32,000 bases of DNA, from contig NC_016803.1 in NCBI RefSeq assembly GCF_000189295.2, forward strand, positions 3,240,001 through 3,272,000, read 5' to 3'. Positions 12,886-28,217 of the stretch are shown one piece after another; positions within the stretch are counted from its first letter, which is position 1; each line of letters opens with the position of its first letter. A program made the translations under genes and the position numbers. The notes under the pieces are model-generated. The model saw only the letters and a list, made by a program, of their open reading frames with translations, was not told where the DNA came from and did no database searches. Source of the stretch: Pseudodesulfovibrio mercurii. Lineage in GTDB: Bacteria > Desulfobacterota > Desulfovibrionia > Desulfovibrionales > Desulfovibrionaceae.

Positions 12886-12922
12886 GGCTGACCCACTCTC
12901 GAAAGCCTCGCTACATACGGTC

Positions 12923-13148: not shown

Positions 13149-14441
13149 CTAGTCCTGTTTGTCCTCGGGGGTGTTCAGCAGGCGGATTTCCCGTTGGGGG
13201 AAGGGGATGGTGATGTTGTTTTCCTTGAAGGAATCCCAGATGTTGAAGAGGACTTCGCTCTTGACGTTGCCCACGCCGCAGTTGGCGTCCGAGATCCAGA
13301 CGCACAGTTCCATGTCGATGGACGAGTCCCCGAATCCGGCCAGGCGGGCCTTGGGCTCGGGAATCTTGAGGATGCGGCTGGTCCGTGAGGCCGCCTCTTC
13401 CAGGAGGGTCTTGACCTGGTGCGGATCGGATTCATACGACACGCCCACCGGGATGATCAGGCGGATGTCCTTGTTGGAATACGTCCAGTTGACCACCTCG
13501 TTGGTGATCATCCGCTCGTTGGGGATGAGGTATTCCTTCCCGTCCCTGGTCAACACCGAGGCGTAGCGGGCGAACATGTGGTGGACCGTGCCGAAGACCC
13601 CGCCCACCTCGATGGTGTCGCCGGGCTTGATGGACTTGTCGGCCAACAGGAGGATGCCCGCTATGTAATTGGAAAAGATGGTTTTCAGCCCGAAGCCGAC
13701 ACCCACGCCCACGGCGCTCGAAAAGATGGCGAAGCTGGTCAGGTCGATGCCCACGCTGGACATGGCCAGCAGCAGTGCGGCGGTGTACAGGACGACGTTG
13801 ACCAACTTGCCGGTGAGCACCTGGAGAGAGGGCGACAGCCCGGTGCTCGTCCGGATCCACCGGGCCACGAGCCGGGAGACGGCCGAGGCGATCTGGAGGC
13901 AGAGGACGGCCAGGAACACGCCCTTGATGGCCCCGTACAGGGAGATGGCCGTGCCGCCCACGGACAGGGTCAGCCCCTGGAGGTAGGCGGTCAGGGGGGC
14001 CTGGAGCCCGCAGACCTGGAGCAGGGCCATGAGCCAGATGAGCACGGCCACGAGCCTGGACAGGACGCGGTTGGGGATGAGCAGGGTCAGCAGCCGGATG
14101 GCCACCCAGGCCAGGGCCAGGTCGCTGGCCGCGAACATCCAGCGCGGAAAGTGATCCAGGAGCACGGACAGGCCGATGCAGACCTGGGCGAAGGCCACGA
14201 AGGCCAGGCTGGCGCCCACCCCGGTGGGGGCGAGAATCAGGGAGCGCACGACCTCGTTGCGCACGGAGCGCCCGATCCAGGCCACGAACCTCGGCCGGGT
14301 GAACCTGCCGAGCACATAGGCCCCGGCCAGGCCCGCGACGATGCACGACCACTCCACGGCCGCGTGGACCGTCAGCAGGTTCACCTGCAACCACTCGATC
14401 ACCTGGTTGTAATAGTATTCGATACCCGGCTCCATGGGCAT
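13149..14441 (-). CDS. Mechanosensitive ion channel, MscS family, with extended N-terminal membrane domain
   Basis: Multiple TM helices are followed by the MscS signature region NYIAGILLLADKSIKPGDTIEVGGVFGTVHHMFARYASVLTRDGKEYLIPNERMITNEVVNWT. RBS spacing favours the ATG at 14435 slightly (GGAAGGA is 6 nt upstream) over 14441. Confidence 0.9.
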   Translation of the reverse strand: MPMEPGIEYYYNQVIEWLQVNLLTVHAAVEWSCIVAGLAGAYVLGRFTRPRFVAWIGRSVRNEVVRSLILAPTGVGASLAFVAFAQVCIGLSVLLDHFPRWMFAASDLALAWVAIRLLTLLIPNRVLSRLVAVLIWLMALLQVCGLQAPLTAYLQGLTLSVGGTAISLYGAIKGVFLAVLCLQIASAVSRLVARWIRTSTGLSPSLQVLTGKLVNVVLYTAALLLAMSSVGIDLTSFAIFSSAVGVGVGFGLKTIFSNYIAGILLLADKSIKPGDTIEVGGVFGTVHHMFARYASVLTRDGKEYLIPNERMITNEVVNWTYSNKDIRLIIPVGVSYESDPHQVKTLLEEAASRTSRILKIPEPKARLAGFGDSSIDMELCVWISDANCGVGNVKSEVLFNIWDSFKENNITIPFPQREIRLLNTPEDKQD

Positions 14442-14457
14442 TCCTTCCGGCGTCAGC

Positions 14458-14955
14458 CTATTGTATCTCGCACAGGTATTCCTGGATGGACTCGTTGCCC
14501 TTGGCGTCCGCGATCTTGATCTCGAGCTTGAACCGGCCCGAGGGGATCTCCACGTTGTCGGCCTTGATGGCGTTCCCTTCGAGATAGGGGGCCAGCCGGT
14601 CGGTCAGGTTCTTGGAGAACCAGCCCTTGCACGCCCGGATGTTAAGGGTCTTCATGTCCACCCGGGCCACGCCGTCCTGGAACAGGATGAGCAGGCGCAG
14701 CCTGGACGGCGACTCGATGACCAGCCCGTTGTCGGTGTCCTTGACCGAGGGCGTCTCGAACACGATCTTCGGGCCCACGCCGAAGCCGATGCCCTTGGAG
14801 GCCACGCCCTGCGCCCATTCGGCGTCGTCCAGGGCGAGGTCCTTGGCCTCTTCCGCCGAGAACAGGGTGAGGGGACCGGCGACGGAGATGGAAGGAAGGG
14901 CCAGCACAACGGCCAGCAGGCTCGCGGCCAGGAAAATATGGATTGCCTTGTTCAT
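14458..14955 (-). CDS. Secreted hypothetical protein (signal peptide, predicted beta-rich)
   Basis: MNKAIHIFLAASLLAVVLALPSISVAGP is a signal peptide. RBS GGAGGG lies 5 nt upstream and overlaps the stop of the preceding gene. GC3 is coding-like. I recognise no family. Confidence 0.7.
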   Translation of the reverse strand: MNKAIHIFLAASLLAVVLALPSISVAGPLTLFSAEEAKDLALDDAEWAQGVASKGIGFGVGPKIVFETPSVKDTDNGLVIESPSRLRLLILFQDGVARVDMKTLNIRACKGWFSKNLTDRLAPYLEGNAIKADNVEIPSGRFKLEIKIADAKGNESIQEYLCEIQ

Positions 14956-14965
14956 GATATCCCTC

Positions 14966-15448
14966 CTAGTTGTCGGATTGGGTCTGTTCCTTGCGCTCGA
15001 AGACCACCTTGTCGATGATCCCGTTGCCCTTCTGGTAGAAGACCAGCGCGTTGTAGTCCTCCACCGGGGAATACAGGGCGATGTCCTTGAGGTAGTCGTA
15101 GGCGGCCACGAGCATGGACAGGACCTCGGAGAAGACGCCCTTGTCCTGGCTCACGGGCACGAGCTTCACGCTCCCGCCGTACTCCGCGACCTTGGAAAAC
15201 CAGTTGTCCAGCCGCTTGGGGATGGAGTTCAGGGTGATGGCCGCCGGAAAGACCAGGGTCACCGCGGGGTAGTCCCCGGCCAGGCTGGCGGACAGCTGCT
15301 TGTCGAAACTCGCGGAGTCGAAGAACTCCACCTGTTCCAGGGGCTCGATGACGGCCGGATGCTTTTTGGGGGCGCAGGCGGCCAGCAGGGCGGCGCAGAG
15401 CAGGACGGCCGCGGCCAGGGACATGAATGTCTTCGTCGTATGGAACAT
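14966..15448 (-). CDS. Hypothetical lipoprotein
   Basis: Lipobox LLAACA (Cys in AALLAAC|APKK) follows a hydrophobic leader. GGAGGAG lies upstream of the ATG at 15448. The gene starts 50 nt downstream of the caspase gene stop. I recognise no family. Confidence 0.7.
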   Translation of the reverse strand: MFHTTKTFMSLAAAVLLCAALLAACAPKKHPAVIEPLEQVEFFDSASFDKQLSASLAGDYPAVTLVFPAAITLNSIPKRLDNWFSKVAEYGGSVKLVPVSQDKGVFSEVLSMLVAAYDYLKDIALYSPVEDYNALVFYQKGNGIIDKVVFERKEQTQSDN

Positions 15449-15498
15449 GGCTCCTCCGTGGGGCTTGGGCGATGTGTCGGTGATGGGCGCCGTGGCGG

Positions 15499-16890
15499 TT
15501 ACCTGATCTTGAGCAGGACGATGCCGGCCCCGTAGGGCTTGCTTTCGGGGCGGGCCGGTTGGGCCGGTTGCGCCGTTTCCGCTTCGGGCTTCTCCTGGGC
15601 GTCGATCACGACGAAGCCGCGCGTGGAGGCCTGGTCCATGGTCCGGAACGCGCCGTCCCCGTACCCCTGACGGTAGAAGTTCACCGGGAACGGGGAGTGG
15701 AAGACCGCGATGAGCGCCTTGCCCGCGGGCGGGGCGGCGGCCAGCTCGAAGGCGTCGCCCTGCGCGGGGATGGCCACGGTCAGGCCCGCCTTGACCAGGT
15801 TCTCGGGATGGAACTTGTTGGGGAAGAGGATGGTGGGCGCCTTGTCGCCGGGCTGGATGGTGACCACGTTGAGGTAGCCGTCGGTCCGGGGGGTGCAGGT
15901 GATGCGTAGCGGATCGCCGACCTTGAAGACCGTGCCGTTGGTCCCGACCTTGACGTCATAGGCGGCGTGGCCCGCGATCTTGCGGATCTGGGTGATCCAG
16001 TCCTCGGGCGCGGCCTCCTTCGGGACGAAGAGATTCTTTTCGTTGTGGGCGGCGTCGCCCACCAGGGCCGGGCTGTAGACCATGGCCGGTTCGGGCACGA
16101 CGTCCGCTATGTACCGGGTGGTCTCGGCGTAGAGCTTGGACATGTCCAGGCGCCGGTCCTTGGCCGCCTGCTCGACCGCCCGCTCGATACCCAGGGTGAA
16201 GAAGCTGCCCTTGGTGGAGGCCTGGGCCCGCTGGTTGTCCTGGGCGGCGCTCAGGGCCGAATAGTTGAGCGGCTCGGCCGTGTCCATGGACTTGTTGAAC
16301 AGGGGCAGGGACCGGCTGGCCCTCGGCATGCCCGGATATTCAAGGAACTTGGGCACGATGCCCGCGTGCCGGGCGGTCAGGCTCCGGGTGGCGGTGCCGC
16401 TGTGGCAGGCGTCGATGAGAATGAAGACGTTGGCGGAACGCATGCGCTTGAGCATGTCGCGGAACATGTCGTCCACCAGGACGTTCTTGAGCGTGTTCAC
16501 CCCGAGGGCCACGTCGTTGCAGACCAGGACCTCGTCCGCGTTGTCGGTTTCGTCCTTGTCCTTATCGTATATCTGCGAGCCGTGCCCGCTGAAATAGAAC
16601 AGGGCGCGTTCGTCGGGGCCCACGCCGGCGATGAGCCACTCGTCCACGGCGGCCTGGATGTTCTTGAGCGTGGCCTGGTCGTCCGTCAGGACCCTGATGT
16701 TTTCCGGCTTGTACCCGAGGGTCAGGGCGACCTTGCGCATGGTCTCGACATCCTTGTCGATACCGGGCAGGTCGATGCCCTTCATCCGGTATTTGCCGAT
16801 GCCGATGAGCAGGGCCTTGTCGGCTGCGTTGGCGGGTGTTGCGGGGAGGATCAGGAGGCAGAGAACAATGAAGAGAAGCAGTCGTTTCAT
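15499..16890 (-). CDS. Exported caspase-like peptidase (C14 family) with C-terminal DUF4384-like domain (paralogue 1)
   Basis: Start reassigned to MKRLLLFIVLCLLILPATPANA (signal peptide). Motifs: ALLIGIGKY, catalytic His in YFSGHGSQ, catalytic Cys in LIDACHSGT. The C-terminal VGDPLRITCTPRTDGYLNVVTIQPGDKAPTILFPNKF...AIPAQGDAFELAAAPPAGKALIAVF fits the DUF4384 pattern as I remember it. Confidence 0.9.
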   Translation of the reverse strand: MKRLLLFIVLCLLILPATPANAADKALLIGIGKYRMKGIDLPGIDKDVETMRKVALTLGYKPENIRVLTDDQATLKNIQAAVDEWLIAGVGPDERALFYFSGHGSQIYDKDKDETDNADEVLVCNDVALGVNTLKNVLVDDMFRDMLKRMRSANVFILIDACHSGTATRSLTARHAGIVPKFLEYPGMPRASRSLPLFNKSMDTAEPLNYSALSAAQDNQRAQASTKGSFFTLGIERAVEQAAKDRRLDMSKLYAETTRYIADVVPEPAMVYSPALVGDAAHNEKNLFVPKEAAPEDWITQIRKIAGHAAYDVKVGTNGTVFKVGDPLRITCTPRTDGYLNVVTIQPGDKAPTILFPNKFHPENLVKAGLTVAIPAQGDAFELAAAPPAGKALIAVFHSPFPVNFYRQGYGDGAFRTMDQASTRGFVVIDAQEKPEAETAQPAQPARPESKPYGAGIVLLKIR

Positions 16891-17087
16891 GGCGTGGTGG
16901 CCCTTTAAAAAATTGTTAACAAAAATAATTTCATAGAATGCATCAATAATCAATACCGCGTTGCTCGTCATAATGAGACGGACAGGTGAGGATTTTTTTC
17001 CGCAGGTGACCTTTTTCCCCACGGGTTGCGTAACGCGAGACAACCCGCTATCTCTACGGACGGGGAAAAACTGTCTGCAAATCAGGG
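16891..17087. promoter_or_regulatory. Divergent control region between the caspase-1 operon and the sigma operon
   Basis: An AT-rich stretch (16905-16960) stands out in a GC-rich genome. A direct repeat CAGGTGA-NN(N)-T5-7 occurs at 16983 and 17003, exactly 20 bp apart. An inverted repeat CGGGTTG-N12-CAACCCG lies at 17022-17047, 41 nt upstream of the sigma ATG. I could not assign any promoter hexamers with confidence. Confidence 0.3.
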
Positions 17088-17939
17088 ATGTTCACGCCTG
17101 TGAAGTGGAAAGACGAGATGTTGGCGAATTGGGAAAGGCTGGCCGCGTTGTCGCGCAGGCGCTTTTCCGACGAGAATCTGGCCGATGAGGCCCTGCTCTA
17201 CGTCTCGGGCGAGCTGGAGCGGGACGACTGGAAGCGGCTCAGGTCCTTCGAGGGGCGGTCCAGCTTCGGTTCGTACCTGCTGCACGTCGCCGCCCGGCTG
17301 CTGGAGGATTTTTCGCGGAAAAAGTTCGGCAGGGTCCGTCCCAACAAGTGGGTCCTTGAGCGGGGCGGCATCTGGCTGACCCTGTTCAGGATGCTCTGCC
17401 TGGAACGGCAGGACGGCGAGCGGGTGGCGGACGTCCTGGCGGCGGGCGCGCCCGGCGGGCGGTCCAGGGACTTTGTGCGCAGGGCCGTGGTGGACATCCG
17501 GGTGCACGTGCCCGACTGCGGCAGGTCCACCCTGCCCCTGGCCGCCGACGGAGTGTCCGTGGACGACCTGCCCGGCGACGGCCAAGCGGCCGGGACCGGC
17601 AATCCGGCAGCAGACCTGAGCGGACGGCAGCGGGAGAGCGTCCTGGCCAGCCTGTCCTGGATGGTGGGCGACGAACTCGCCCCGGAGAACGGGGCGGCCA
17701 CCCGCCTGGCGGACAAGGTCGCGGACGCGGGCCGGACCCTGCGGCTCGACGCGGAGGACCGGCTGTTCCTGAAGATGATCTACCGCGAGGGCATGAACGT
17801 CAGCGCGGCGGGCCGGATGCTCGAATGGTCGGCGTCCCGGTCGCACAGCCGGTTGAAGTCGCTGTTGCGGGAGCTCCGGGAGGCCTTTGACGGCGCGGGC
17901 ATCGGCGAGGAAATTTTCGCCCTGATAACGAATGCATAG
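17088..17939 (+). CDS. Divergent ECF-like sigma-70 family sigma factor with a long insert between regions 2 and 4
   Basis: Region-2-like: FEGRSSFGSYLLHVAARLLEDFSRKKFG. Region-4-like HTH: LDAEDRLFLKMIYREGMNVSAAGRMLEWSASRSHSRLKSLLRELREAF. About 100 aa separate them, making the protein (283 aa) longer than typical ECFs. An anti-sigma gene follows. An alternative start lies at 17118. Confidence 0.65.
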   Translation: MFTPVKWKDEMLANWERLAALSRRRFSDENLADEALLYVSGELERDDWKRLRSFEGRSSFGSYLLHVAARLLEDFSRKKFGRVRPNKWVLERGGIWLTLFRMLCLERQDGERVADVLAAGAPGGRSRDFVRRAVVDIRVHVPDCGRSTLPLAADGVSVDDLPGDGQAAGTGNPAADLSGRQRESVLASLSWMVGDELAPENGAATRLADKVADAGRTLRLDAEDRLFLKMIYREGMNVSAAGRMLEWSASRSHSRLKSLLRELREAFDGAGIGEEIFALITNA

Positions 17940-17946
17940 GACAAAG

Positions 17947-18843
17947 ATGCAGAGGACGAATCGGCATATGGCGCACCATCTGAGCGACGAACAACTGGCC
18001 GAACTGGGTCTGGCCGCGACGGAAGGAACCGGGCATCCCGGCCCCTGCCCGTCCGCCGAGGATCTGGCCGCACTGCGGGAGGGCCGCCTGGACGCGGCCC
18101 GCCGGGCCGAAATCCTGGCCCATCTCGACGGTTGCGCCGAATGCGTGGCCCGGTGGCTGGCCGTGTCGTCGGTGGACGCATCCTCGGAGGACGCGCCGGA
18201 GCGGGCCGTCCCGGCCCCCAGGGCCGTGTCGCCGGTCTTTGTCCGGACCGTGGCCGTGATTGCGGCCGTTGCCGCCTGCGTGTTTTTCGTCATCCGTCTC
18301 TTTCCCCCGAGCGGGGGCGGGCCGGACTTCGCGCGCTCCGTGGACGCCGGGTACCGGCTCGTGCTGGACGATCCCCGGTTGTACGCCGCCCTGAGCGGCC
18401 CGGTCCGGGAGCTGGCCGCGTCCGGCGGGGTGCGGTCCGCCGGGACCCCGGCCGAAGGCGCGTTCGAGGCCGGGTGGGCGGCGGGCCTGGCCGCGCTGGG
18501 CCGGGGCAGGGAAGGGGTTGCCGCGCCTTCCGGCAACGCGCGCGCGGAGTACGTCTTTGCGGCGGGACGGTGGAGCGTCCTGGTTCATGCGGCGCTGGAC
18601 GCGGAGGTCCCGTCCGGCGGGAATTTCTGGAAGGAGCAGGCGCGGACCGCCGGGCTGTTCCAGGAGCGGACGGCCGCGCTCGCGCCTGGGGACGAGACCC
18701 GGCACCGGGCCCTGTGGGGGGACCTGGCGGCGGTCCTGGACCGTCTGGCCGACGGTTCCGCCACGGCGCGGGACCGGGACCGGCTGTGCAGGCTCCTGGG
18801 CGGGCTCGGTCGGGTCATGGGGGAATCGGACCTCGGCGCCTGA
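17947..18843 (+). CDS. Zinc-binding (ZAS-type) anti-sigma factor, single-pass membrane protein with periplasmic domain
   Basis: HLDGCAECV matches the H-x3-C-x2-C motif. It is followed by a TM segment (VFVRTVAVIAAVAACVFFVI) and an Ala/Gly-rich extracytoplasmic domain of about 190 aa. In-frame starts exist at 17932, 17947 (AGGA 5 nt upstream) and 17968, so the exact start is uncertain. Confidence 0.7.
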   Translation: MQRTNRHMAHHLSDEQLAELGLAATEGTGHPGPCPSAEDLAALREGRLDAARRAEILAHLDGCAECVARWLAVSSVDASSEDAPERAVPAPRAVSPVFVRTVAVIAAVAACVFFVIRLFPPSGGGPDFARSVDAGYRLVLDDPRLYAALSGPVRELAASGGVRSAGTPAEGAFEAGWAAGLAALGRGREGVAAPSGNARAEYVFAAGRWSVLVHAALDAEVPSGGNFWKEQARTAGLFQERTAALAPGDETRHRALWGDLAAVLDRLADGSATARDRDRLCRLLGGLGRVMGESDLGA

Positions 18844-18877
18844 CGAAAAAACCGGGCCGCGTCCGTCTGACAATGTC

Positions 18878-21013
18878 ATGAACATCCACTTGCCCATCAT
18901 CCATCGTCCGAGGCCCGTCGCCGGGTGGCTGCCCGCCCTGGTCCCGGCATTGTTCCTGCTGCTGACGTCGGTCGCCTTCGGGGCGCAGAAGTACGCCCTG
19001 CTCATCGGCATCAACGACTATTCCCACACCGGCTTCCGCTCCCTGCGCGGGGCCAGGAACGACATCGACCTCATGCGCGGGGTGCTCGTCTCCCGCTTCG
19101 GGTTCGCGCCCGGGCATATCGTCCAGCTGGTGGACGGCCAGGCCACGCACACGGCCATCCGCGACGCCTTCCACCGCCTGCGGGACACGGTCGGTCCCGG
19201 AGATTTCGTCTACATCCACTATTCCGGCCACGGCTCCTCGGTCTGCGACGTGAGCGGCGACGAGGGACCCGGCGGGCTGGACTCCACCTGGGTCGCCTTC
19301 GGATCGAGGACCGGCGGCAAGGGCAAGGCCGGGCCCGTGGACTGCCGCCTGCTGCGCGAGCGGGCGGGGACCCTCCCCGCCTGGAGCGACGGCATCGACT
19401 CCTACGACATCCTGGACGACGAACTGAATGGCTGGCTGGTGGAGTTGGGCCGCGTCACGGACAACATCGTGTTCGTGTCCGATTCCTGCCACTCCGGCAC
19501 CGTGACCCGGAGCTTCGAGGCTCGGGCCACGCGCGGCCTGCCCCGCGATTTCCGGCCCTACGTGCCCGGCCGGATCGAGACCGGGACCCTGCGGGGCGTC
19601 CGGATCGGGGCCTGCCGGGACGACGAAAAGGCCGGGGAGTACCGCACCGGGGACAAGGTCTACGGCATGTTCACCTGGTTCTGGGCCAATGCCCTGATGG
19701 AGGTCGGGCCGGACGCCACCTGGCAGGACCTGGTCAAGCGGGCCTCCGCGCTCATCGGCTACGAGTACGCCGGGTATTCCAATCAGCACCCGCAGATCGA
19801 GGGCGGCCTGGACCGGGAGGTCTTCGGCGGCGGCGGGCGGGACCTGGACGACAGGGTGTCCGTGGCCGGAGTGGACGACGGCCTGGTGTCCCTCAATGCG
19901 GGCAGCCTGTCCGGAGTGACCGTCAACTCGCTCTACGTGGACACGTCCCGGGGGGGCGGAGCCGGGGAGCGCAGCGTGCGGATCGTCTCGGTGGAGCCGA
20001 CCATGAGCATCGGCGAGACCTCGGCGGACCTGAAGCCGGGGGACCTGCTGTCCCTGAAGCGGTTCTGGCCCGAAGCCTCCTCCCGGTCGATCTTCGTGCG
20101 CGCGGAGCTGCCCGGCGACGCCCTCTACGCGGCCATGGCCCGCGAGGCCGTGCGGAACATGCCGCAGTTCGAGCTCGCCGGGGACGAATCCTCGGCGGAC
20201 CTGATCCTGCACATCTTCCGGCCCGGCAGGGGGGCGGCCAAGGACGCCGCCCGGCAGGAAGGCCCGCCCGCATCGGACGAAAGCGCCCCGGTCCAGTGCT
20301 GGATTCTTTCCCCGGACGGGCGGCCCCTGGCCGAGGGCGGGCGCAGGCTCACCCTGGCCGTGACGCGGGACTGGGAGAAGCCCCTAGAGGATGCCCTGGA
20401 ACGGGTCTCCAGGGTGCGCCATCTGCTGACCCTCAAGTCGCCGCCGGGCGCGGCCCGGCCGGTGATCATGGAGATGACCATCTGGAAGCCCGCCGTTGCC
20501 GGGGCCACGGGCGAGATTCGGGAGATCGGCGGCAGGCGCTACGCCCGCTGGGGCAGCTTCGACACGGACGTTTCCGACACGGCCGTCCTGGCCGTGGGCG
20601 ACGTGCTGACGTTCGGCATGTACAACCAAAGCGATACGCCGTATTACTGCTATCTGATCGATATCACTGACGACGGCAGGATTCTGCCCTTCTACCCGAC
20701 CGAGGAGAAGGGCATGGAATCGGGCAAGGTGCTGCCGGGGCAGACCCTGGACACGGCGGACGACCTTTCCCTGGAAATGGACCGGTCCGGGCGCGAATAC
20801 ATCCAGCTGATCGTCAGCCGGGACCCGGTGGACATCGGCCTGCTCAACCAGCGCCGGGCCGGGTCTTCCGGCAAGGACCTGGGCTTTGCCGGGAGCTTCC
20901 TGCTGCCCGCCTCCGGCCGTGGCAAGGACGTGGACCGGAGCGTCCCCCCGGCGCAGTGGGCAACGGAAAAACTGGTCCTGGACATAGCCGCCCGGGGCGG
21001 GAGCAACTCATGA
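18878..21013 (+). CDS. Exported caspase-like peptidase (C14 family) with middle domain and C-terminal DUF4384-like domain (paralogue 2)
   Basis: The real start is the ATG at 18878 (MNIHLPIIHRPRPVAGWLPALVPALFLLLTSVAFGAQ, a signal/anchor). Motifs: ALLIGINDY, catalytic His in HYSGHGSS, catalytic Cys in VSDSCHSGT. The C-terminal VGDVLTFGMYNQSDTPYYCYLIDITDDGRILPFYPTEE...YIQLIVSRDP is DUF4384-like. The upstream 120 codons of the track ORF are a shadow of the anti-sigma gene. Confidence 0.9.
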   Translation: MNIHLPIIHRPRPVAGWLPALVPALFLLLTSVAFGAQKYALLIGINDYSHTGFRSLRGARNDIDLMRGVLVSRFGFAPGHIVQLVDGQATHTAIRDAFHRLRDTVGPGDFVYIHYSGHGSSVCDVSGDEGPGGLDSTWVAFGSRTGGKGKAGPVDCRLLRERAGTLPAWSDGIDSYDILDDELNGWLVELGRVTDNIVFVSDSCHSGTVTRSFEARATRGLPRDFRPYVPGRIETGTLRGVRIGACRDDEKAGEYRTGDKVYGMFTWFWANALMEVGPDATWQDLVKRASALIGYEYAGYSNQHPQIEGGLDREVFGGGGRDLDDRVSVAGVDDGLVSLNAGSLSGVTVNSLYVDTSRGGGAGERSVRIVSVEPTMSIGETSADLKPGDLLSLKRFWPEASSRSIFVRAELPGDALYAAMAREAVRNMPQFELAGDESSADLILHIFRPGRGAAKDAARQEGPPASDESAPVQCWILSPDGRPLAEGGRRLTLAVTRDWEKPLEDALERVSRVRHLLTLKSPPGAARPVIMEMTIWKPAVAGATGEIREIGGRRYARWGSFDTDVSDTAVLAVGDVLTFGMYNQSDTPYYCYLIDITDDGRILPFYPTEEKGMESGKVLPGQTLDTADDLSLEMDRSGREYIQLIVSRDPVDIGLLNQRRAGSSGKDLGFAGSFLLPASGRGKDVDRSVPPAQWATEKLVLDIAARGGSNS

Positions 21014-21645
21014 ACAGCGTGAAATGGTGTCTTGTCGTCGTATTGAGCCTGTTGTTCGCCGCGCCATGCGGCGCGGGCGAGCGCGTGAACCGCAGCGCCG
21101 AGGACGGGGCCAAGTCGCCCCGGGTGGTGATGATCGAGCAATACGCCCTGTCCGTGTCCATGGCCGACTACGGCGAGAGTTCCGGCAATCCGGTGGTCCT
21201 CCTGGCCGCTGCCCAGATTATGAAGGACGCCGGGCTCGGTGCCGAGGCGGACCGGGACGCGGCGCGCATCCTGGAGTCGGCCATGCGGCGCGCGGGCACG
21301 AACCTCAAGCTGCGCTCCCTGATCACCGCCGAGATGCGGCGGCAGGGCATGCGCGGCAATGTCCAGGGCCCGGCCAAGAACGTCAACCGGCTGGAGCCGA
21401 GCGGCGCGGCCGAGCACGACGTCCGCTTCATGGCCGGGGAACGGGCCGCGGTCTACGTCAAGAGCCGTGGCGGCCGCTTCAAGGTCTCGGTCTACGACGA
21501 AAACGGCGGCCTGGTGGCCGACCGGGACGGCGTGGACAGGGAGTGCATGGTCCAGTGGACGCCCGACTGGGACGGGCTGTTCACCATCAAGGTGGCCAAC
21601 CGGGAACAGGGGGCCGAACTGGCCTACCTCATGCTGACCAACTAG
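21010..21645 (+). CDS. Secreted hypothetical protein with a possible pre-peptidase-C-terminal-like beta-sandwich
   Basis: The ATG overlaps the caspase stop (ATGA at 21010-21013). Signal peptide: MNSVKWCLVVVLSLLFAAPCGAG. The C-terminal FMAGERAAVYVKSRGGRFKVSVYDENGGLVADRDG...WDGLFTIKVANRE resembles PPC-type domains. That resemblance is a low-confidence judgement by eye. Confidence 0.65.
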   Translation: MNSVKWCLVVVLSLLFAAPCGAGERVNRSAEDGAKSPRVVMIEQYALSVSMADYGESSGNPVVLLAAAQIMKDAGLGAEADRDAARILESAMRRAGTNLKLRSLITAEMRRQGMRGNVQGPAKNVNRLEPSGAAEHDVRFMAGERAAVYVKSRGGRFKVSVYDENGGLVADRDGVDRECMVQWTPDWDGLFTIKVANREQGAELAYLMLTN

Positions 21646-21662
21646 CGCCCACGGAGAGAGAC

Positions 21663-22187
21663 ATGTTTCGGAAATTCTGCATCGGGGTTTGTCTGGCATT
21701 CGCGGCGGTCGCCCTGGCCGGGGTCGCCCTGGCCGGGGAGGTGATCGACAGCGACACCCTGGTCCGGCAGCTGGAGGACGGCGGGAGCGGCGGCATGCGC
21801 ACGCGCGGCTTCACGGTCAACAAGGCCGCGGCCGAGACGCCCAGGCCCTCGGCGACCGTCTACATCTATTTCGCCACCAACAGCGCGGTCATCACCGGCG
21901 AGCAATCCTTCAGGCAGCTCGACGAGCTGGGCCGGGCCCTGACCTCAAGCGCCCTGCGCGGGGCGCGCATGGAGATCGGCGGCCATACGGACAGCGTGGG
22001 CAGCGATGCCTACAACCTGCAATTGTCCAGGAAGCGGGCCCAGGCCGTGAGCGACTATCTCAACAAGAAGTATGGGTTCACGGCTGCGGCCGTCACGGGC
22101 TACGGCGAGTCCGCCCCCGTGGCCTCCAACGAGACCGCCGAGGGGCGGGCCGGGAACCGCCGGGTGGTCATCACCCGCCTGGATTAG
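21663..22187 (+). CDS. OmpA/MotB-family peptidoglycan-binding protein (exported)
   Basis: Signal peptide MFRKFCIGVCLAFAAVALAGVALAGE. OmpA_C motifs: IYFATNSAVI, IGGHTDSVGSDAYNLQLSRKRAQAV, GYGESAPV, NRRVVI. Confidence 0.9.
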   Translation: MFRKFCIGVCLAFAAVALAGVALAGEVIDSDTLVRQLEDGGSGGMRTRGFTVNKAAAETPRPSATVYIYFATNSAVITGEQSFRQLDELGRALTSSALRGARMEIGGHTDSVGSDAYNLQLSRKRAQAVSDYLNKKYGFTAAAVTGYGESAPVASNETAEGRAGNRRVVITRLD

Positions 22188-22206
22188 GCTCGGGGAAGTC
22201 TGCGCC

Positions 22207-24279
22207 GTGAAATTCAAGTGGAAGCTCCTGCTGGTCCTGCTGGCCGTGGCCCTGGTGCCCCTGCTGGTCATGCGGGTGGTCATCCAGGACGCGGACGAGG
22301 AGTCCGCCCGTGTCCTGGCAGAGCGGTTCGGCCTGGGCGTGTCCGTGGGCCGGGACGCGGACGACGACCTGTCCATGCCCCTTGAGGACATCCTCGTGGC
22401 CCGGACCGAATCCGAACTGCTCTCCGTGGCCCGACGGTCCGCCCGGACGGCCGGGGACCGCTTCCGGCTGCTCGCCCAGGTGCAGCGGGAACAGCTGCGC
22501 CTGCTGGCCGGAGACGCGCCCCAGGATACGCCGCCCGAGCGGACCGGGGCCGGGAGCGGCTACTGGGCCTGGACCGGGGACGGCAAGCGGTCCCGGCTGG
22601 AGGTGGATCTCTCCTCGCTCACCACGCTCTCCCCGGAAGGCGGCGTCCCTGCGGCCCCGGACGGGTTTCTCGGGACGGCGCTCCCCGCCCTCGAATTCGG
22701 CAAGCGCTCCCTGCCCCGGCTGGTCCTGTGGCAGTGGGCCCGGTCCACGGATGGGACCGTCTGCCTGTATCCCGGACTGCCGGGCAACGGGGGCGCGCTC
22801 GTCCGGGAGTTCGCCGCCGTGGGCAGGGAGGCGGTCGGCACACCGGTTACGGTCCTGGCCAGCCCGGCCACGCACCAGCTGATGCTGCTCTCGACCCTGC
22901 GGGGCCGGACCCTGTCATCCCCCACGGTCACGGTGGCGGCCGCCATGGACGACCTGTTCGACAGCGCGGACGCGGTGGGGTTGCCCGCCGGCATCCAGTG
23001 GTTTTTCGTCCAGGCGGACGGGGAGGTGGTGCGCCTGCTCGCCTCGCGCACGCCCGGCGACGATCCCGGCTCCCTGTACTGGGCCTCGGGCGACCCCCTG
23101 CCCGACCTCGGGCCTGACCGGGGCGGCCCGCTCCGGGCCGGTCTCCGGGACGGCGGCCACGGGTCGTTTCGCCGGGGCGAAGGGGACGCCGACCATCTCT
23201 GGATCTTTGCCGGGCTGGGGGTGCGCGGCCTGGGCGTGGTCCTGCGCCTGTCCGTGTCCTCCCTGCTCGGGCAGTCCCTCCAGGCCGAGCGGTTCGTCGG
23301 CGAGACCATCCGGGTCCGGCACCGGACCATGATGCTGGTCATCGCGGGCCTGGGGCTGCTGACCCTGCTCGCGGCCCTGGCCCTGTCGAGCACCATGACC
23401 CGGCGCATGGAGCGGCTGGCCGAGGCGTTCAGGCAGGTGGCGGCGGGCGATTTTTCGGTCCGGGTGCGGGTGCGCGGCCGGGACGAGCTGGCCCAGCTGG
23501 GCGCGACCTTCGACGAGATGGTCCCGGCCCTGGACGAGCAGGTGCGCATGAAGCGGGACATGGCCGTGGCCCGTGGCATTCAGCAGTGCCTCATGCCCGA
23601 GGACGCGCCGTCCGCGCCGGGGCTGGACGTGGCCGGAATGTCCATCCCGCACGACGAGACCGGCGGGGATTACTATGATTTCTTCCGCTTCGACAACGGC
23701 GAGGTCGGGGCCGTGGTCGGGGACGTCACCGGACACGGCATCCCGGCGGCCCTGCTCATGGCCAGCTCGCGGGCCTTCCTCCGCGCCAACCTCGATGGGG
23801 GGGCGGATGCGGGACAGGTCCTGACCCGCGCCAACGAGCTGCTTTCGCGGGACATCCAGACCACGGGCCGGTCCATGACCGCGTTCCTGTGCGCCGTGGA
23901 CCCTGCCCGCCGGATGATCCGCTGGTCCCGCGCCGGACACGATCCGGCCATCGTCTACCTGCCCGGCAGCGGCGCCTTCGAGGAACTGGCCGGGGACAGC
24001 GGGCTGCCGCTGGGCGTCATGGACGGGATGGAATATGTGGAGGAGCGGCGGGAACTGCCCGAGGGCGCCGTGGTCTTCTTCGGCACGGACGGGGTCTGGG
24101 AGACCCATGGCCGGGACGGGGAGCTGTTCGGCAAGGACCGGGTCAGGGCGATCCTCCGGGAGAACGCGGACCGTTCCGCCGGGGCCATCGCCGACGTGAT
24201 CCTGTCCTCGGTCCGGGCCTTCGCCGGTGACGACGGGGTCGAGGACGACCTGACCCTGATCGTGCTCAGGCTGGTCTAG
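22207..24279 (+). CDS. Membrane sensor PP2C-type (SpoIIE/RsbU-like) serine phosphatase with periplasmic domain and HAMP
   Basis: GTG start at 22207 (VKFKWKLLLVLLAVALVPLLV is TM1). A periplasmic region of about 370 aa leads to TM2 (MMLVIAGLGLLTLLAALALS) and a HAMP domain (FRQVAAGDFSVRVRVRGRDELAQLGATFDEM). PP2C motifs: ARGIQQCLMP, GGDYYDF, VVGDVTGHGIPAALLMA, FGTDGVWE, DDLTLIVL. Confidence 0.9.
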   Translation: MKFKWKLLLVLLAVALVPLLVMRVVIQDADEESARVLAERFGLGVSVGRDADDDLSMPLEDILVARTESELLSVARRSARTAGDRFRLLAQVQREQLRLLAGDAPQDTPPERTGAGSGYWAWTGDGKRSRLEVDLSSLTTLSPEGGVPAAPDGFLGTALPALEFGKRSLPRLVLWQWARSTDGTVCLYPGLPGNGGALVREFAAVGREAVGTPVTVLASPATHQLMLLSTLRGRTLSSPTVTVAAAMDDLFDSADAVGLPAGIQWFFVQADGEVVRLLASRTPGDDPGSLYWASGDPLPDLGPDRGGPLRAGLRDGGHGSFRRGEGDADHLWIFAGLGVRGLGVVLRLSVSSLLGQSLQAERFVGETIRVRHRTMMLVIAGLGLLTLLAALALSSTMTRRMERLAEAFRQVAAGDFSVRVRVRGRDELAQLGATFDEMVPALDEQVRMKRDMAVARGIQQCLMPEDAPSAPGLDVAGMSIPHDETGGDYYDFFRFDNGEVGAVVGDVTGHGIPAALLMASSRAFLRANLDGGADAGQVLTRANELLSRDIQTTGRSMTAFLCAVDPARRMIRWSRAGHDPAIVYLPGSGAFEELAGDSGLPLGVMDGMEYVEERRELPEGAVVFFGTDGVWETHGRDGELFGKDRVRAILRENADRSAGAIADVILSSVRAFAGDDGVEDDLTLIVLRLV

Positions 24280-25941
24280 CTATTTGCCCATGTATTCGTC
24301 CAGCGCCTGGTTCACGCTCTCTTTGAGGAAGAACAGGTAGCGGGTCACCGGATAGTAGCTCCCCCGCGATTCCTTCAGCGTGAAGGTCTTCAACGTGTCC
24401 TTTTTCGCATCGTAGAAGTTGCACAGGACGTATATTTGATTCGAGGTGTTCAGGGTGCTCAGGTAGGTCGACACGGCCATCAGGGTGTCGGCGTGCAGCT
24501 GAACCGCCATCTGCCTGAGGATATTGGTGTCGGGGGGCCGGGAGGCCCCGCCGGACCACAGGATCGCCTCCGCGTTCGGGGACAGGGTATAGGGATGCGC
24601 CGGCGAATCCCCGTCTCCGGCGCAAAAGACGGAAAGGACGTCCTTTCTCTCGGCCAGGACGGAGAGCAGCTTTTCCCGTCCCTTCACCTCCCAGTCGCGC
24701 CGCTTGTATTTGTAGGTCCAGGCAAAGGCCATGGGCGCCACAGAAAGGACGAGCCTGCCGTTGGCGGCGCTCAGGGCTTTTTGCCTGGCGGACAGGGGAT
24801 CGACGTCGGTATGGACGATGTCCGATCCGCCTGAAACGATCCGGTTCTGCTGCAATGCGGCCACCTGTTGCCGCATGGCTTCCAACTGGGCCTTGAGCTC
24901 CTCGTCGGTCTGGCCGGATTGCGGGGCCGGGACGGGCTGCGGCCGGGTCTCGGCCTGTTCCTGCATGGCGGCCATCTGCTGCTGCACGGCCGCGAGCTGG
25001 GCCTTGAGCTCCTCGTTGGAATCGTCGGGCTGCCGCGTCTGGACCAGTTCGGCGTTCTGCCGGGCCTGCTCCTGGAGCGCCGCCATCTGCTGTTGCATGG
25101 CCAGGAGCTGCGCCTTGAGCGCCTCGGTCTCGGGGGTGACGGCCGGGGCGGGCGGGGGCGTCGGCGCGGCGACCGGTTCCGGTTTCTTCTCACGGAAATA
25201 GAACTTGCCGATCAGGGACGAGGATTCCCACGGCGTCTGGCGACCGCCGGTGTCCCGGATCACGCCGCGCCGGACCTGCATGAAGGTGTCGTAGATGTCC
25301 AGGCCGGGGGTGTTCATGGCCGCGAGCAGGTTCTTGGTGTAGACCCCGTTGCGTCCCTCCCCGTCGGCCGCCACCGAGCCCGGAGCCGTGGCGTAGGCCA
25401 TGATGGACCCGGTGGGCGCGTCCATGCGGGCCAGGCCGGTGGTCTCGGAGCGCATGGACCGGGCAAAGGGGTTGTTGCGGCAGGCGTCCAGGATGATGAT
25501 GTTCATCTGGTTGCCCGCCAGCTTCAGGTGATCCAGGATGCGGCCCGCCGAGACCGCCTCATAGGGCACGTCCGCCTCGGTCTCGATGTCCGCGTCCACC
25601 GGGATGAGGTAGTTCTCCCCGTTCACCTGGATGCCGTGCCCGGCGAAATAGAAGAGGCCCACGCCGCCGTCCGCCAGCTGCCTGGACAGCTTGCGCACGG
25701 CGTTCTCCATCTGGCGCCGGGTGCCGTCGGTCAGGAGCGTGACCCGGAAGCCGAGTCCCTCGAGTTCCCTGCCGACGTCCGTGGCGTCGTGGACGGGGTT
25801 GGCCAGGGGCATGCCGGGGTAGGCGGAATTGCCGATGACCAGGGCGGTTTTCTGGGGAGCGGCGGCCCTGGCGGGCGCGAGAAGGAGCAGGGTTGTCGCC
25901 AACAGCGAGACGACGATGGCGATGGGGGTTCTGGTGTGCAC
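24280..25941 (-). CDS. Exported caspase-like peptidase (C14) with Pro-rich linker, 3 x 37-aa coiled-coil repeat and unknown C-terminal domain (paralogue 3)
   Basis: GTG start at 25941 (GGAG 6 nt upstream), with signal peptide TPIAIVVSLLATTLLLLAPARA. Motifs: ALVIGNSAY, catalytic His in YFAGHGIQ, catalytic Cys in ILDACRNNPF. Then a KKPEPVAAPTPPPAPAVTPE linker, three EELKAQLxAxQQQxAAxQEQ repeats, and about 190 aa with no family I recognise. Confidence 0.9.
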   Translation of the reverse strand: MHTRTPIAIVVSLLATTLLLLAPARAAAPQKTALVIGNSAYPGMPLANPVHDATDVGRELEGLGFRVTLLTDGTRRQMENAVRKLSRQLADGGVGLFYFAGHGIQVNGENYLIPVDADIETEADVPYEAVSAGRILDHLKLAGNQMNIIILDACRNNPFARSMRSETTGLARMDAPTGSIMAYATAPGSVAADGEGRNGVYTKNLLAAMNTPGLDIYDTFMQVRRGVIRDTGGRQTPWESSSLIGKFYFREKKPEPVAAPTPPPAPAVTPETEALKAQLLAMQQQMAALQEQARQNAELVQTRQPDDSNEELKAQLAAVQQQMAAMQEQAETRPQPVPAPQSGQTDEELKAQLEAMRQQVAALQQNRIVSGGSDIVHTDVDPLSARQKALSAANGRLVLSVAPMAFAWTYKYKRRDWEVKGREKLLSVLAERKDVLSVFCAGDGDSPAHPYTLSPNAEAILWSGGASRPPDTNILRQMAVQLHADTLMAVSTYLSTLNTSNQIYVLCNFYDAKKDTLKTFTLKESRGSYYPVTRYLFFLKESVNQALDEYMGK

Positions 25942-26020: not shown

Positions 26021-26164
26021 TTCCTAGATAAGGGCCTCCTGATTCCGGCCTCCACAGATACGGGGACGGACACCTCCGGCCGATTTTTCTCCTGTTCGGC
26101 AAAATGGTTTTCCACCGTTCGCGCGGGGCGCGCCGGACGGCCGTCCGTGCGCAACGGACCGGGG

Positions 26165-26231: not shown

Positions 26232-26663
26232 TTATTCGCCCGATATCTTGAGGGATTCGGCCTGGGAGCCGTCGTCGAGCCATTCCAGCTCGATCTCGCA
26301 TTTGGCCTTGTCCTTTTTGCGGGCCAGCTTGAGCTCCACCTGCATGGTCTCGGGCACGCCGAGGACCAGGGTGCCGCCCTCGTTCTCGGCGCGGATGACG
26401 CCGGATTCGATGGAGTCGGCCAGGTCCTTGAGGTAGGCGACCACCTGGGCCGTGTCCATGGTCTGTTCGATCTTGATCTTGCCTTTGCCCATCGTGGTCT
26501 CCTCGTTGTCGGTCGCGGCCGGGCGGAACAGGCCGGTGCGCGGTCCGGCCGTGTCCGCCCGCGGGGCGGGTTGCGTGGTTTCGGGGGCCGGGCCGGAGGC
26601 CTCGGGGGTCGCGGCGGGCGTGACCCACTCAAGAGGGTTGGTCCCGAGTCTCTCGTCGCTCAT
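26232..26663 (-). CDS. Amphi-Trp domain protein with Pro/Thr/Ala-rich N-terminal extension
   Basis: KIKIEQTMDTAQVVAYLKDLADSIESGVIRAENEGGTLVLGVPETMQVELKLARKKDKAKCEIELEWLD matches my memory of the amphi-Trp domain: alternating-charge strands and a conserved Trp in an ElEW motif. The ATG at 26663 overlaps the ParA stop (ATGA), and the 57-codon extension has high GC3. An alternative internal ATG at 26492 has a strong GAGGAG RBS. Confidence 0.75.
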   Translation of the reverse strand: MSDERLGTNPLEWVTPAATPEASGPAPETTQPAPRADTAGPRTGLFRPAATDNEETTMGKGKIKIEQTMDTAQVVAYLKDLADSIESGVIRAENEGGTLVLGVPETMQVELKLARKKDKAKCEIELEWLDDGSQAESLKISGE

Positions 26664-27415
26664 GGGGCACCTCTGCGGAGCAGTTCCAGGGCCAGGTTCC
26701 GGTAGTCGGCGGCCCCGTGGCTGCGGGGTTTGTAGGTGAAGATGTCCCGGCCGAAACTGGGGGCCTCGGCCAGGGAGATGTTGTCGCGGATGGTCGTATC
26801 CAGCAGGGCGTCGCCGAAGTGGTCCTTGATCTTGCGCCGGATCTCCCGGTTGAGCTTGCGGGTGCGTTGGTAGCGGGTCATGAGGATGCCGGACAGGGTG
26901 AGATGCGGGTTCCAGCCCTCGCGGATGGCCTTGACCGTCTCCATGAGCTTGCCCAGGGATTGCAGGGCCAGGAATTCCGGCTGCACCGGCACGAGCAGTT
27001 CGTTCGCCGCGACCATGGCGTTCAGTGTGAGCATGCCGAGGTTGGGCGGGCAGTCGATGATGGCGAAGTCGTACCCTCCGGTCCCGGCCAGGGCGTCGCG
27101 CAGCCGGGTCTCGCGGTTCCCGGCCGAAGCCAGGTCCACCTCGGTCCCGGCCAGGGCCACGGAGGCGGGCACCACATGCAGTCCGCCGACCTCCATGGTC
27201 ACGCTGTCCAGGGGACACTCGCGCATCAGGGCCGCGCCCATGGTCCGGGGCAGCTCGTGGGCCATGATGCCCAGGGAATAGGTCAGATGCGCCTGGGGGT
27301 CGAGGTCCAGCAGCAGGACGCGCCGGTCCTGCCGGGCCAGGGCGGCCCCCAGGTTCACGGCGGTGGACGTCTTGCCCACGCCCCCCTTCTGGTTCAGTAC
27401 GGCGATGATGCGCAT
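26660..27415 (-). CDS. ParA/Soj/MinD-family P-loop ATPase (orphan, no ParB seen)
   Basis: Deviant Walker A in IIAVLNQKGGVGKTSTAVNLG, plus LLLDLDPQAHLT, Walker B DFAIIDCPP, and LVPVQPEFLALQSL. Confidence 0.95.
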   Translation of the reverse strand: MRIIAVLNQKGGVGKTSTAVNLGAALARQDRRVLLLDLDPQAHLTYSLGIMAHELPRTMGAALMRECPLDSVTMEVGGLHVVPASVALAGTEVDLASAGNRETRLRDALAGTGGYDFAIIDCPPNLGMLTLNAMVAANELLVPVQPEFLALQSLGKLMETVKAIREGWNPHLTLSGILMTRYQRTRKLNREIRRKIKDHFGDALLDTTIRDNISLAEAPSFGRDIFTYKPRSHGAADYRNLALELLRRGAP

Positions 27416-27427
27416 GCCGGTCCCGGT

Positions 27428-27613: not shown

Positions 27614-27645
27614 TGTTTTTCTCCGCAATGGGCTCGTGCTCGTTG

Positions 27646-28191: not shown

Positions 28192-28217
28192 GTTCACAAC
28201 CTCCTTTGGGTTGGCCG

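Follow-up and report, generated by a model that had tools for sequence, protein, structure and literature searches.

The C14 peptidases of the cluster

The region considered here is a 32,000-nucleotide (nt) stretch of Pseudodesulfovibrio mercurii DNA, which in its full length is termed the window, and within it a cluster of genes in which three caspase-like peptidases of the C14 family, predicted to be exported, are encoded around a divergent sigma factor and its anti-sigma partner. The cluster also includes the genes for three small predicted envelope proteins (p160, p165 and p211), an OmpA-like protein and a HAMP-PP2C phosphatase. The three peptidase genes, termed caspA, caspB and caspC (their products and the corresponding families being A, B and C), had been singled out in an original prediction as caspase-like open reading frames (ORFs) with intact catalytic motifs and differing C-terminal modules, and this description holds for all three. 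The first, caspA (15499..16890, minus strand), encodes a 463-residue metacaspase-like C14 peptidase, predicted to be exported, with a C-terminal DUF4384 domain. The second, caspB (18878..21013, plus strand), encodes a 711-residue peptidase, likewise metacaspase-like and of predicted export, whose middle domains are beta-rich and whose C-terminal region resembles DUF4384. The third, caspC (24280..25941, minus strand), encodes a 553-residue paracaspase-like C14 peptidase, also predicted to be exported, in which the protease is joined to a coiled coil and to a C-terminal domain restricted to its lineage. The lengths of caspB (711 residues) and caspC (553 residues) agree with those of the database gene calls.

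The Pfam Peptidase_C14 model (PF00656) recovers A, B and C with 69, 50 and 146 bits respectively, all above its gathering cut-off of 21.4 (E = 6e-19 for caspA and 1.7e-42 for caspC). The signature motifs around the catalytic residues are FSGHG and IDACHSG in caspA, YSGHG and SDSCHSG in caspB, and FAGHG and LDACRNN in caspC. In a three-way alignment of the proteins the residues G102, H103, G104, D160 and C162 (caspA numbering) are invariant, as is D47, which occupies the acidic S1-pocket position in helix alpha1. The dyad of the B family aligns with the catalytic His and Cys of Yca1 and AtMC4, and that of caspC with the dyad of MALT1.

The accessory regions are distinct in each protein. The DUF4384 domain (PF14326) of caspA is detected with 64.5 bits (E = 9e-18), well above the gathering cut-off of 27 bits. 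The corresponding region of caspB scores 21 bits, below the same cut-off, and precomputed PF14326 matches are on record for many B homologues of full length. In an AlphaFold2 model of caspB, with a predicted template modelling score of 0.78, the middle domains are beta-rich. The model of caspC has three long helices (residues 270-365) and an alpha/beta C-terminal domain (residues 376-553) with predicted local distance difference test scores of 80-95. The coiled-coil region of caspC (residues ~251-385; 24786-25190, minus strand) is made up of three diverged copies of a EELKAQLAAMQQQ-type unit. The number of such repeats varies from one to three among the relatives of caspC, with the distant orthologues containing one copy, and no tandem repeat was found at the DNA level beneath these units.

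Predicted export and substrate specificity

Each of the three proteins contains a single hydrophobic 19-mer, located at the N-terminus and followed by ANA/A in caspA, AFG/A in caspB and ARA/A in caspC. A hydrophobic N-terminal stretch is also found in nearly all of the 24 aligned members of the B family. The original prediction held that all three proteins begin with signal peptides; a single signal-like N-terminal segment is indeed present in each, and these features strongly suggest that the proteins are exported. Signal-like N-termini are seen on seven products of the cluster, to which two membrane sensors with periplasmic domains can be added. The further proposal that a periplasmic location sets these enzymes apart from the cytoplasmic caspase-like proteases of gasdermin or CRISPR-associated systems is weakened by a survey published in 2012, since N-terminal transmembrane (TM) helices or signal peptides are found in ~15% of prokaryotic metacaspases (PMC3501461).

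Specificity for basic P1 residues has been assigned to Asp95 and Asp211 of TbMCA2 and to Asp365, Asp462 and Glu500 of MALT1 (reviewed in PMC4357240). In caspA numbering, D47 and D160 are equivalent to Asp95 and Asp211 of the former and to Asp365 and Asp462 of the latter. The B family has D62 and D202, and the C subfamily D52 and D152, as invariant residues; the equivalent of Glu500, the third pocket residue, has no confident alignment in caspC. Given this conservation of the acidic residues of the S1 pocket, all three enzymes would be expected to cleave after Arg or Lys. The B family additionally conserves an acidic stretch after the catalytic His (D..GDE...D, DDE), which aligns with Yca1 and AtMC4, and Ca2+ dependence of caspA and caspB is possible.

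Three anciently diverged lineages of C14 proteases

The above genes had been viewed as a local expansion of paralogues with swapped recognition domains, a view that is contradicted by the divergence of their protease cores. Pairwise BLASTP comparisons of these cores give an identity of 30% for A and B, across 199 residues, and of 26% for A and C, with no significant match recovered between B and C (E = 0.13). Searches of the PDB with a profile of the B family retrieve Yca1 (1e-22), AtMC4 (1e-22) and GSU0716 (2e-15), with AtMC9 and TbMCA2 also among the best matches. Consistent with this, a fold search with the model of caspB gives AtMC4 (2e-11), AtMC9, GSU0716 and Yca1 as its best matches. For caspC, in contrast, sequence (5.7e-14) and fold (1.1e-11) searches both place the MALT1 paracaspase as the best solved relative. 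Thus, A and B are metacaspase-like and C is MALT1-like, and the cluster unites two branches of the C14 family. The affinity of caspC to the paracaspases concerns the catalytic domain only: the architecture of type-1 paracaspases, with a death domain and immunoglobulin (Ig) domains flanking the protease, is not present in caspC, which instead combines a signal peptide with a coiled coil and an alpha/beta C-terminal domain of its own.

Closer relatives of each caspase are found in other phyla than among its own neighbours in the cluster. Full-length members of the B family, of ~700 residues, occur in Desulfobacterota, Beggiatoaceae/Thiomargarita, Chromatiales, Nitrosomonas and Geobacter, and are unified by invariant YSGHGS and SDSCHS motifs. 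The protease domain of caspC belongs to a very large clade, with identities of up to 65%, in which it is fused to various C-terminal modules, namely FGE-sulfatase, Sel1, TPR/TPR_19, PF07603 and PEGA. The nearest public proteins, 77-82% identical, are named Pseudodesulfovibrio. The pairwise comparisons and the different nearest solved relatives together rule out a recent duplication. Because the cores are so diverged and fall into different branches of the C14 family, the three caspases of this cluster are distinct old lineages that were assembled, rather than duplicated, in place.

The sigma/anti-sigma pair

The gene divergent from caspA (17088..17939, plus strand) encodes a divergent sigma-70-family protein resembling the extracytoplasmic function (ECF) sigma factors, with a length of 273-283 residues and a long linker between sigma2 and sigma4. 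It matches TIGR02937 with 33.1 bits (E = 3.8e-8), below the curated cut-off of 42.9, and the Sigma70_r4 and r2 models at E = 0.01 and 0.07 respectively. A profile of its family recovers sigma4 of FliA and of SigW from the PDB at 1.7e-4, and some homologues contain a PF04545 match or are named sigma-24. On account of the long linker the protein exceeds typical ECF factors by ~100 residues. The family is small, with 62 clusters of 196-315 residues, most of which are without Pfam matches. Rows for Gasdermin-B in the profile search with this family (E 0.03-0.1) are at chance level.

The succeeding gene (17932..18843, plus strand), which overlaps the sigma gene by 8 nt, encodes a 303-residue predicted anti-sigma factor with a cytoplasmic zf-HC2 domain (HxxxCxxC), one TM helix at ~103-121, corresponding to its single hydrophobic 19-mer, and a periplasmic domain of ~180 residues. 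The zf-HC2 match (6.8e-4; 20.1 bits) falls just under the Pfam cut-off of 22.2 bits, the motif itself is present as HLDGCAEC, and the RsrA and ChrR models match weakly. The protein thus has the features of the partners of class I zinc-associated anti-sigma (ZAS) systems, namely a downstream gene, an HxxxCxxC zinc finger and one TM helix. At every related locus where it is found the anti-sigma gene adjoins the sigma gene.

Conservation of the cluster in related genomes

In a Pseudodesulfovibrio contig (locus L001), in which B is 77% identical, the whole arrangement is present, including the phosphatase. Two further loci, L083 and L084, represent two pieces of one locus from a distant relative in which B and C are 45% and 41% identical. 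L083 contains the MscS-p165-p160-caspA group and the sigma, anti-sigma and caspB genes, after which the OmpA-like gene begins but is represented by its N-terminal half only; the C-terminal half of this gene lies in L084, convergent with the caspC orthologue. Both p211 and the HAMP-PP2C phosphatase are absent from L083 and L084, and are therefore regarded as accessory. The conserved core accordingly comprises caspA (with p160 and p165), the sigma and anti-sigma genes, caspB, the OmpA-like gene and caspC. Scattering of the paralogues in relatives, which had been named in advance as an observation that would refute the original prediction, is not seen, their linkage being preserved both in L001 and in L083 and L084.

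For a broader view, 79 genome loci with a B homologue were collected and their neighbours studied with iterated profile searches. A sigma and/or anti-sigma gene is found near B in 10 of these loci. Homologues of p211 are also found in 10 of the 79, nine of them within ~800 nt of B and the remaining one, a shorter relative from Geobacter, 7 kb away. When the survey is restricted to the 33 loci in which B is flanked on each side by 5 kb or more of sequence, a second caspase is present in eight, the sigma pair in five and p211 in five. The second caspase is sometimes of the C type and directly adjacent to B, as in L061. In a rough neighbour-joining tree of the B family, loci with the sigma pair or p211 fill most of the deep branches outside Beggiatoaceae. 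The expansion of B within Beggiatoaceae mostly lacks both, and giant TPR proteins are often adjacent there. The OmpA-like protein and the HAMP-PP2C phosphatase were also considered as universal partners of B and rejected, since OmpA homologues occur at only two other loci and the phosphatase is missing from L083 and L084.

An obligate link between the sigma family and caspases is similarly ruled out by four distant members of the sigma family that have no caspase nearby. At two such loci a secreted-type protein of ~580 residues with VWA/vWF_A/YfbK_C domains is encoded divergently from the sigma gene (L085 5881-7605 and L088 6088-7845, both on the minus strand). The presence of this protein in the position of caspA suggests that it is an exchangeable target gene of the sigma family. 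On the whole, the association of sigma factor and caspase is recurrent but facultative, a pattern more readily explained by a sigma factor acting on its target genes than by a protease and substrate that are obligately paired.

A large secreted-protease cluster with a B homologue is also seen in Geobacter hydrogenophilus (L002/L004, ~1-16000). It encodes a p165-like protein, a trypsin-PDZ protein, a short p211-like beta-domain protein, an M48-TPR protein and a second trypsin, as well as an FGE-sulfatase, a caspase with the Glucodextran_B-C14 architecture and two giant TPR proteins. Three families of small proteins and proteases are common to this cluster and that of the window.

A shared motif upstream of the caspase genes

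The three caspase genes are preceded by copies of a bipartite pattern of the form GAAAAA-N6-12-GTCCGTC, which occurs four times in the 32-kb window against an expectation of 0.01, with no shuffled sequence giving more than one match. The copy GAAAAAAATCCTCACCTGTCCGTC (16977..17000, minus strand) lies ~85 nt 5' of the caspA ATG, in the divergent intergenic region between caspA and the sigma gene, and is a candidate promoter element. A second copy, GAAAAAACCGGGCCGCGTCCGTC (18845..18867, plus strand), ends 10 nt before the ATG of caspB, and a third, GAAAAATCGGCCGGAGGTGTCCGTC (26065..26089, minus strand), is found ~125 nt 5' of the GTG of caspC. The 7-mer GTCCGTC is present six times in the window, and all but one of these copies fall inside the cluster.

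Comparisons with related loci lend further support to this element. When the intergenic region between caspA and the sigma gene is aligned three ways with its orthologues, including that of L083, an invariant GAGACGGACA block is seen, which on the caspA strand reads TGTCCGTCTC. The same TGTCCGTCTC 8-mer is found 5' of caspC both in the window and in L001, and the core precedes the caspC orthologues of L001 (17251, minus strand) and L084 (5530, plus strand). The site of caspB has a one-mismatch copy, CGTCCGTC, 10 nt before the ATG, at which position L001 has TGTCCGTC. In each case a run of A residues is located 6-10 nt 5' of the core. In unrelated lineages that carry this sigma family, TGTCCGTC is enriched ~4-fold within 3.5 kb of the sigma gene, with 12 copies in 85 kb compared with a density of 0.36 per 10 kb elsewhere (Poisson 8.5e-5); with the three loci used for motif discovery excluded, seven copies are counted in 64.5 kb. 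Among other loci with the sigma pair near B, L044 contains GAACCGAC-N14-TGTCCGTCTTA twice, each copy preceding a gene, and in L027 the motif is situated ~105 nt 5' of a p211-caspB operon.

The fourth copy in the window (17318..17340, plus strand) lies inside the sigma ORF, where it encodes a conserved KKFGRVRP segment. Intragenic copies are likewise present in L001 (8472-8494) and L083 (5074-5097), and the codons GTC CGT are retained in both, the sigma protein of L083 being 50% identical, with the neighbouring synonymous sites differing. The CGT codon used here accounts for 4% of the Arg codons in the genes of the window. This intragenic copy may be an internal promoter or operator. A scan of the cluster with sigma-70 promoter and terminator consensus sequences remained at chance level, and a search of the long intergenic regions for riboswitches and other structured RNAs gave no match at the Rfam gathering score. 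Taken together, the distribution of the motif suggests a candidate promoter or operator that would tie the three caspase genes into one regulon, and we infer that it could serve as a promoter recognised by the neighbouring sigma factor.

Other genes of the cluster and its flanks

On the minus strand, caspA is followed in turn by p160, p165 and an MscS channel gene. The p160 gene (14966..15448, minus strand), directly 3' of caspA and in the same orientation, encodes a small predicted lipoprotein with an LLAAC lipobox and an N-terminal hydrophobic segment containing Cys25. The p165 gene (14458..14955, minus strand), co-oriented and 3' of p160, encodes a small protein with a signal-like N-terminus that is predicted to be secreted. 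Neither protein has a family match in Pfam or NCBIfam. Both genes are conserved 3' of caspA in L001 and L083, and the p165 homologue of Geobacter hydrogenophilus belongs to the above-described secreted-protease cluster that includes a B homologue.

On the plus strand, caspB is followed by p211 (21010..21645), whose product is a predicted secreted partner with a helical N-terminal half and a beta-rich C-terminal half. The ATG of p211 overlaps the stop codon of caspB (ATGA; 21010-21013), an arrangement that points to translational coupling of the two genes, and L001 has the same overlap in its annotation (12145 and 12148). Besides L001, at least nine further lineages have a p211 homologue beside a B-family caspase. 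No Pfam or NCBIfam family includes p211, and a search of the PDB with a profile of its family gave only chance-level filamin rows (E 0.23). The succeeding gene (21663..22187, plus strand) encodes a 174-residue OmpA_C-like protein, predicted to be secreted, which is of the peptidoglycan-binding type and has no barrel (Pfam OmpA, 5e-19). Its nearest models are YfiB, PA1041 and YiaD, all under their cut-offs, and in L083/L084 its gene directly follows caspB. In the N-terminal region of this protein (21663-21800; L083 8690-9046) conservation is confined to a short stretch, …S(D/S)D(T/D)L(V/L)RQL…RTRGF(T/V)V…, which precedes a linker that differs greatly in length and is rich in Pro and Ala in L083. 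That the RTRG of this segment might be a site for an Arg-specific protease is pure speculation.

The last plus-strand gene of the cluster (22207..24279) encodes the HAMP-PP2C phosphatase, which lies outside the conserved core and consists of a TM segment, a periplasmic domain of ~350 residues, a second TM segment, a HAMP domain and a PP2C/SpoIIE phosphatase. Pfam recovers the HAMP and SpoIIE domains, and a SiaA-like model matches at 4e-21, below its cut-off; two TM segments are predicted. The phosphatase gene and caspC are convergent, their stop codons abutting directly at 24279/24280, and the junction shows no hairpin resembling a terminator. Beyond caspC lies a minus-strand cluster (26232-31404) that is syntenic in L001 and encodes an Amphi-Trp protein, a ParA-like ATPase, a second Amphi-Trp protein with a Lys/Ala-rich tail, and CofD-like, HPr-kinase-C-like and RimK-like ATP-grasp proteins.

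A probable sigma-controlled module for proteolysis in the envelope

Because of the tight and conserved gene order, the overlapping reading frames and the shared upstream motif, the above genes appear to form a single functional unit. We interpret this unit as a conserved, probably sigma-controlled module for envelope proteolysis, made up of three C14 peptidases of ancient divergence and predicted export, and give this interpretation about an even chance of being correct. The module would be chromosomal and vertically inherited. Its caspases would be synthesised with signal peptides of the Sec type and would function in the periplasm or in association with the cell wall and outer membrane, and their partners in the envelope would be p211, p160, p165 and the OmpA-like peptidoglycan-binding protein. 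The sigma factor would be held by the single-pass zinc-finger anti-sigma factor, with its periplasmic domain as the sensor, until a signal in the envelope sets it free. Once freed, it would initiate transcription of each of the three caspase units at a promoter containing the GAAAAA-N6-12-GTCCGTC element. The DUF4384 and beta-sandwich domains and the C-terminal domain of caspC could serve in the choice of substrates or in anchoring the enzymes.

Several observations weigh against this interpretation. Export is a prediction from sequence features. The bipartite pattern was defined post hoc; the spacing between its blocks varies (6-10 nt) and the copy at caspB lies only 10 nt before the ATG, both of which are odd for a promoter of the -35/-10 type. 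No copy is located 5' of the sigma gene on its own strand, and the caspB orthologue of L083 is without the motif. The sigma protein scores under the curated cut-offs, with the sigma2 region barely detectable. Among the 33 loci in which B has 5 kb or more of flanking sequence on each side, only five contain the sigma pair, and all four distant members of the sigma family that were sampled have an anti-sigma-like neighbour and no caspase.

Three other explanations bear on the same data. The cluster might encode ordinary peptidases for constitutive turnover, maturation or scavenging, including nutrient proteolysis, with the neighbouring regulators unrelated to them. Secreted degradative peptidases of clan CD, such as the gingipains, are well known (PMC4357240), the flanks consist of housekeeping genes, and the OmpA-like wall-binding neighbour and the MscS channel would fit general envelope physiology. 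We regard such a role as quite improbable: the order of the genes is tight and conserved together with the sigma pair, the frames of sigma and anti-sigma and of caspB and p211 overlap, a motif is shared upstream, and the conservation of full-length multi-domain proteins across phyla suggests specific rather than bulk substrates. A closer functional coupling is envisaged if caspB, possibly with caspA or caspC, is a signal-activated site-1 protease in the periplasm that cuts the periplasmic domain of the anti-sigma factor, so that an RseP-type intramembrane cleavage follows and the sigma factor is released; such a switch would be self-amplifying if the sigma factor drives the caspase genes. The sigma, anti-sigma and caspB genes do follow one another with almost no spacing in the window, L001, L083 and L044, and the pair is found near B homologues in L018, L038, L059, L027, L073, L016, L010 and L060. 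There are also precedents in DdvA, whose periplasmic caspase-fold TPR-CHAT is proposed to cleave itself before RseP acts (PMC11506125), and in the type III-E protease Csx29, which cleaves the anti-sigma-like Csx30 (bioRxiv 10.1101/2022.08.17.504292). This explanation is nevertheless unlikely in our estimate, as the sigma pair is missing from the neighbourhood of most B homologues, the distant sigma-family members sampled lack a caspase in four of four cases and have a VWA/YfbK_C protein in the position of caspA in two, no fusion of an anti-sigma factor to a metacaspase was seen among the 120 best B homologues, and no cleavage site has been identified. An extended form of it, in which the switch responds to a cue in the envelope such as, perhaps, Ca2+ or a foreign protein, and the freed sigma factor transcribes all three caspases to give a self-amplifying periplasmic cascade, is in our view slightly less likely still. 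Such a cascade would be a formal analogue of the initiator and executioner caspases, and the fast-evolving C-terminal domain of caspC could be its specificity or sensor module.

The original prediction had favoured a conflict or recognition system. In such a system the exported caspases would be effectors or sensors in phage defence, inter-bacterial antagonism or kin recognition, and the variable C-terminal modules would recognise non-self. The part of this proposal that finds some support concerns caspC. Its C-terminal domain is the only fast-evolving one among the accessory domains, with identities of 43% against 89% for the protease domain in comparison with L001, and of 25% against 70% in comparison with L084. 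This domain has no relatives outside its own cluster in a phmmer search of 1.84 billion representative proteins, and a fold search with it gave one modest match other than to caspases, the hypothetical protein CT253 of Chlamydia (PDB: 6uxc; E 5e-6, template modelling score 0.47), on which no paper was found. In addition, proteases of the caspC clade occur with a wide range of C-terminal fusion partners, Beggiatoaceae and Thiomargarita have a greatly enlarged B family whose genes often adjoin those of giant TPR proteins, and the DdvS/DdvA precedent controls a defence island. The remainder of the evidence points the other way, and a role in conflict is in our judgement quite unlikely. No known defence system is matched, with PADLOC (PADLOC-DB v2) returning only generic domain matches, namely a generic caspase model and ZorB through the OmpA/MotB domain. 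The window contains no nucleases, NTPases, toxins, immunity genes or integrases, none of its 31 ORFs scanned with Pfam has a gasdermin or cas domain, and no genes of mobile elements are present. It is chromosomal DNA of ~67% guanine-plus-cytosine content, uniform and without anomalies. In relatives the cluster occupies the same chromosomal place between housekeeping genes, which in both Pseudodesulfovibrio loci are GSIII/MscS on one side and the ParA/Amphi-Trp/CofD/RimK cluster on the other. In comparison with L001, A and B show roughly equal conservation in their accessory and protease domains (76% against 85% for A and 85% against 83% for B), and the three proteases are not recent duplicates.

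Relationship to known systems

Operons with several metacaspases, up to three in a deltaproteobacterium, were reported in the survey by Asplund-Samuelsson et al. (2012; PMC3501461), which also recorded OmpA in 14 metacaspase operons and conserved metacaspase operons with sigma factors in myxobacteria. The present cluster resembles these in the combination of C14 proteins bearing N-terminal TM helices or signal peptides, several metacaspases, and OmpA and sigma genes. That work was a domain census without a mechanism, and neither the set seen here, with two metacaspase-like proteins that have a DUF4384 or DUF4384-like region, a paracaspase-like protein, a ZAS factor, p211 and an OmpA-like protein, nor the cis element is described in it.

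The closest characterised system is DdvS/DdvA of Myxococcus xanthus, in which an ECF sigma factor is paired with a transmembrane zinc anti-sigma factor that has a periplasmic TPR-CHAT domain of the caspase fold (PMC6061681, PMC11506125). The two share the presence in one locus of a sigma factor of the ECF or, in the present case, ECF-like type, a single-pass ZAS anti-sigma factor and a periplasmic caspase-fold cysteine protease, the last being predicted in the present case. For DdvS/DdvA a proteolytic step upstream of sigma release has been proposed. Unlike in DdvA, the protease is here a separate gene, belongs to the C14 rather than the CHAT family, is without TPRs and is present in three versions; the 303-residue anti-sigma factor has no protease or TPR match in Pfam or NCBIfam and hence is no DdvA-like fusion. 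Furthermore, no CBASS or CRISPR regulon is located nearby, and the canonical motifs are complete, whereas the dyad of DdvA lies in an incomplete site.

A comparable triad of caspase-like protease, anti-sigma-like protein and ECF sigma factor is seen in craspase, where Cas7-11 acts with the TPR-CHAT protease Csx29, and Csx30 holds RpoE. Some type III-E Csx30 proteins even have a DUF4384 as their C-terminal domain (bioRxiv 10.1101/2022.08.17.504292). However, craspase is cytoplasmic and RNA-guided, the window is devoid of cas genes and of a CRISPR array, and DUF4384 is attached here to the protease and there to the anti-sigma-like Csx30. With the structural references, namely Yca1, AtMC4, AtMC9, TbMCA2 and GSU0716 for A and B and MALT1 for C, the proteases of the cluster share the fold, the dyad and the acidic S1 residues of alpha1 and L4. 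In contrast to their predicted export and their DUF4384, beta-sandwich and coiled-coil modules, these references are cytoplasmic and have prodomains or death and Ig domains. No description of the shared cis element, or of the conserved set of three caspases with a sigma switch, was found in the literature searched.

Implications

Caspase homologues are abundant in bacteria, and almost none has a known substrate or role; those that have been characterised, namely the orthocaspases, craspase and the gasdermin-activating proteases, are cytoplasmic. The cluster offers a compact and testable system, with three C14 enzymes of predicted export, a dedicated sigma/anti-sigma pair, a candidate common promoter and predicted secreted partners. 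Should the enzymes turn out to be ordinary degradative proteases, the outcome would be a routine refinement of annotation. If the regulon and the Arg/Lys-directed proteolysis in the envelope prove true, they would provide a first handle on the function of periplasmic proteases of the caspase family, and would show whether enzymes of the caspase fold gate anti-sigma factors beyond the single example of DdvA.

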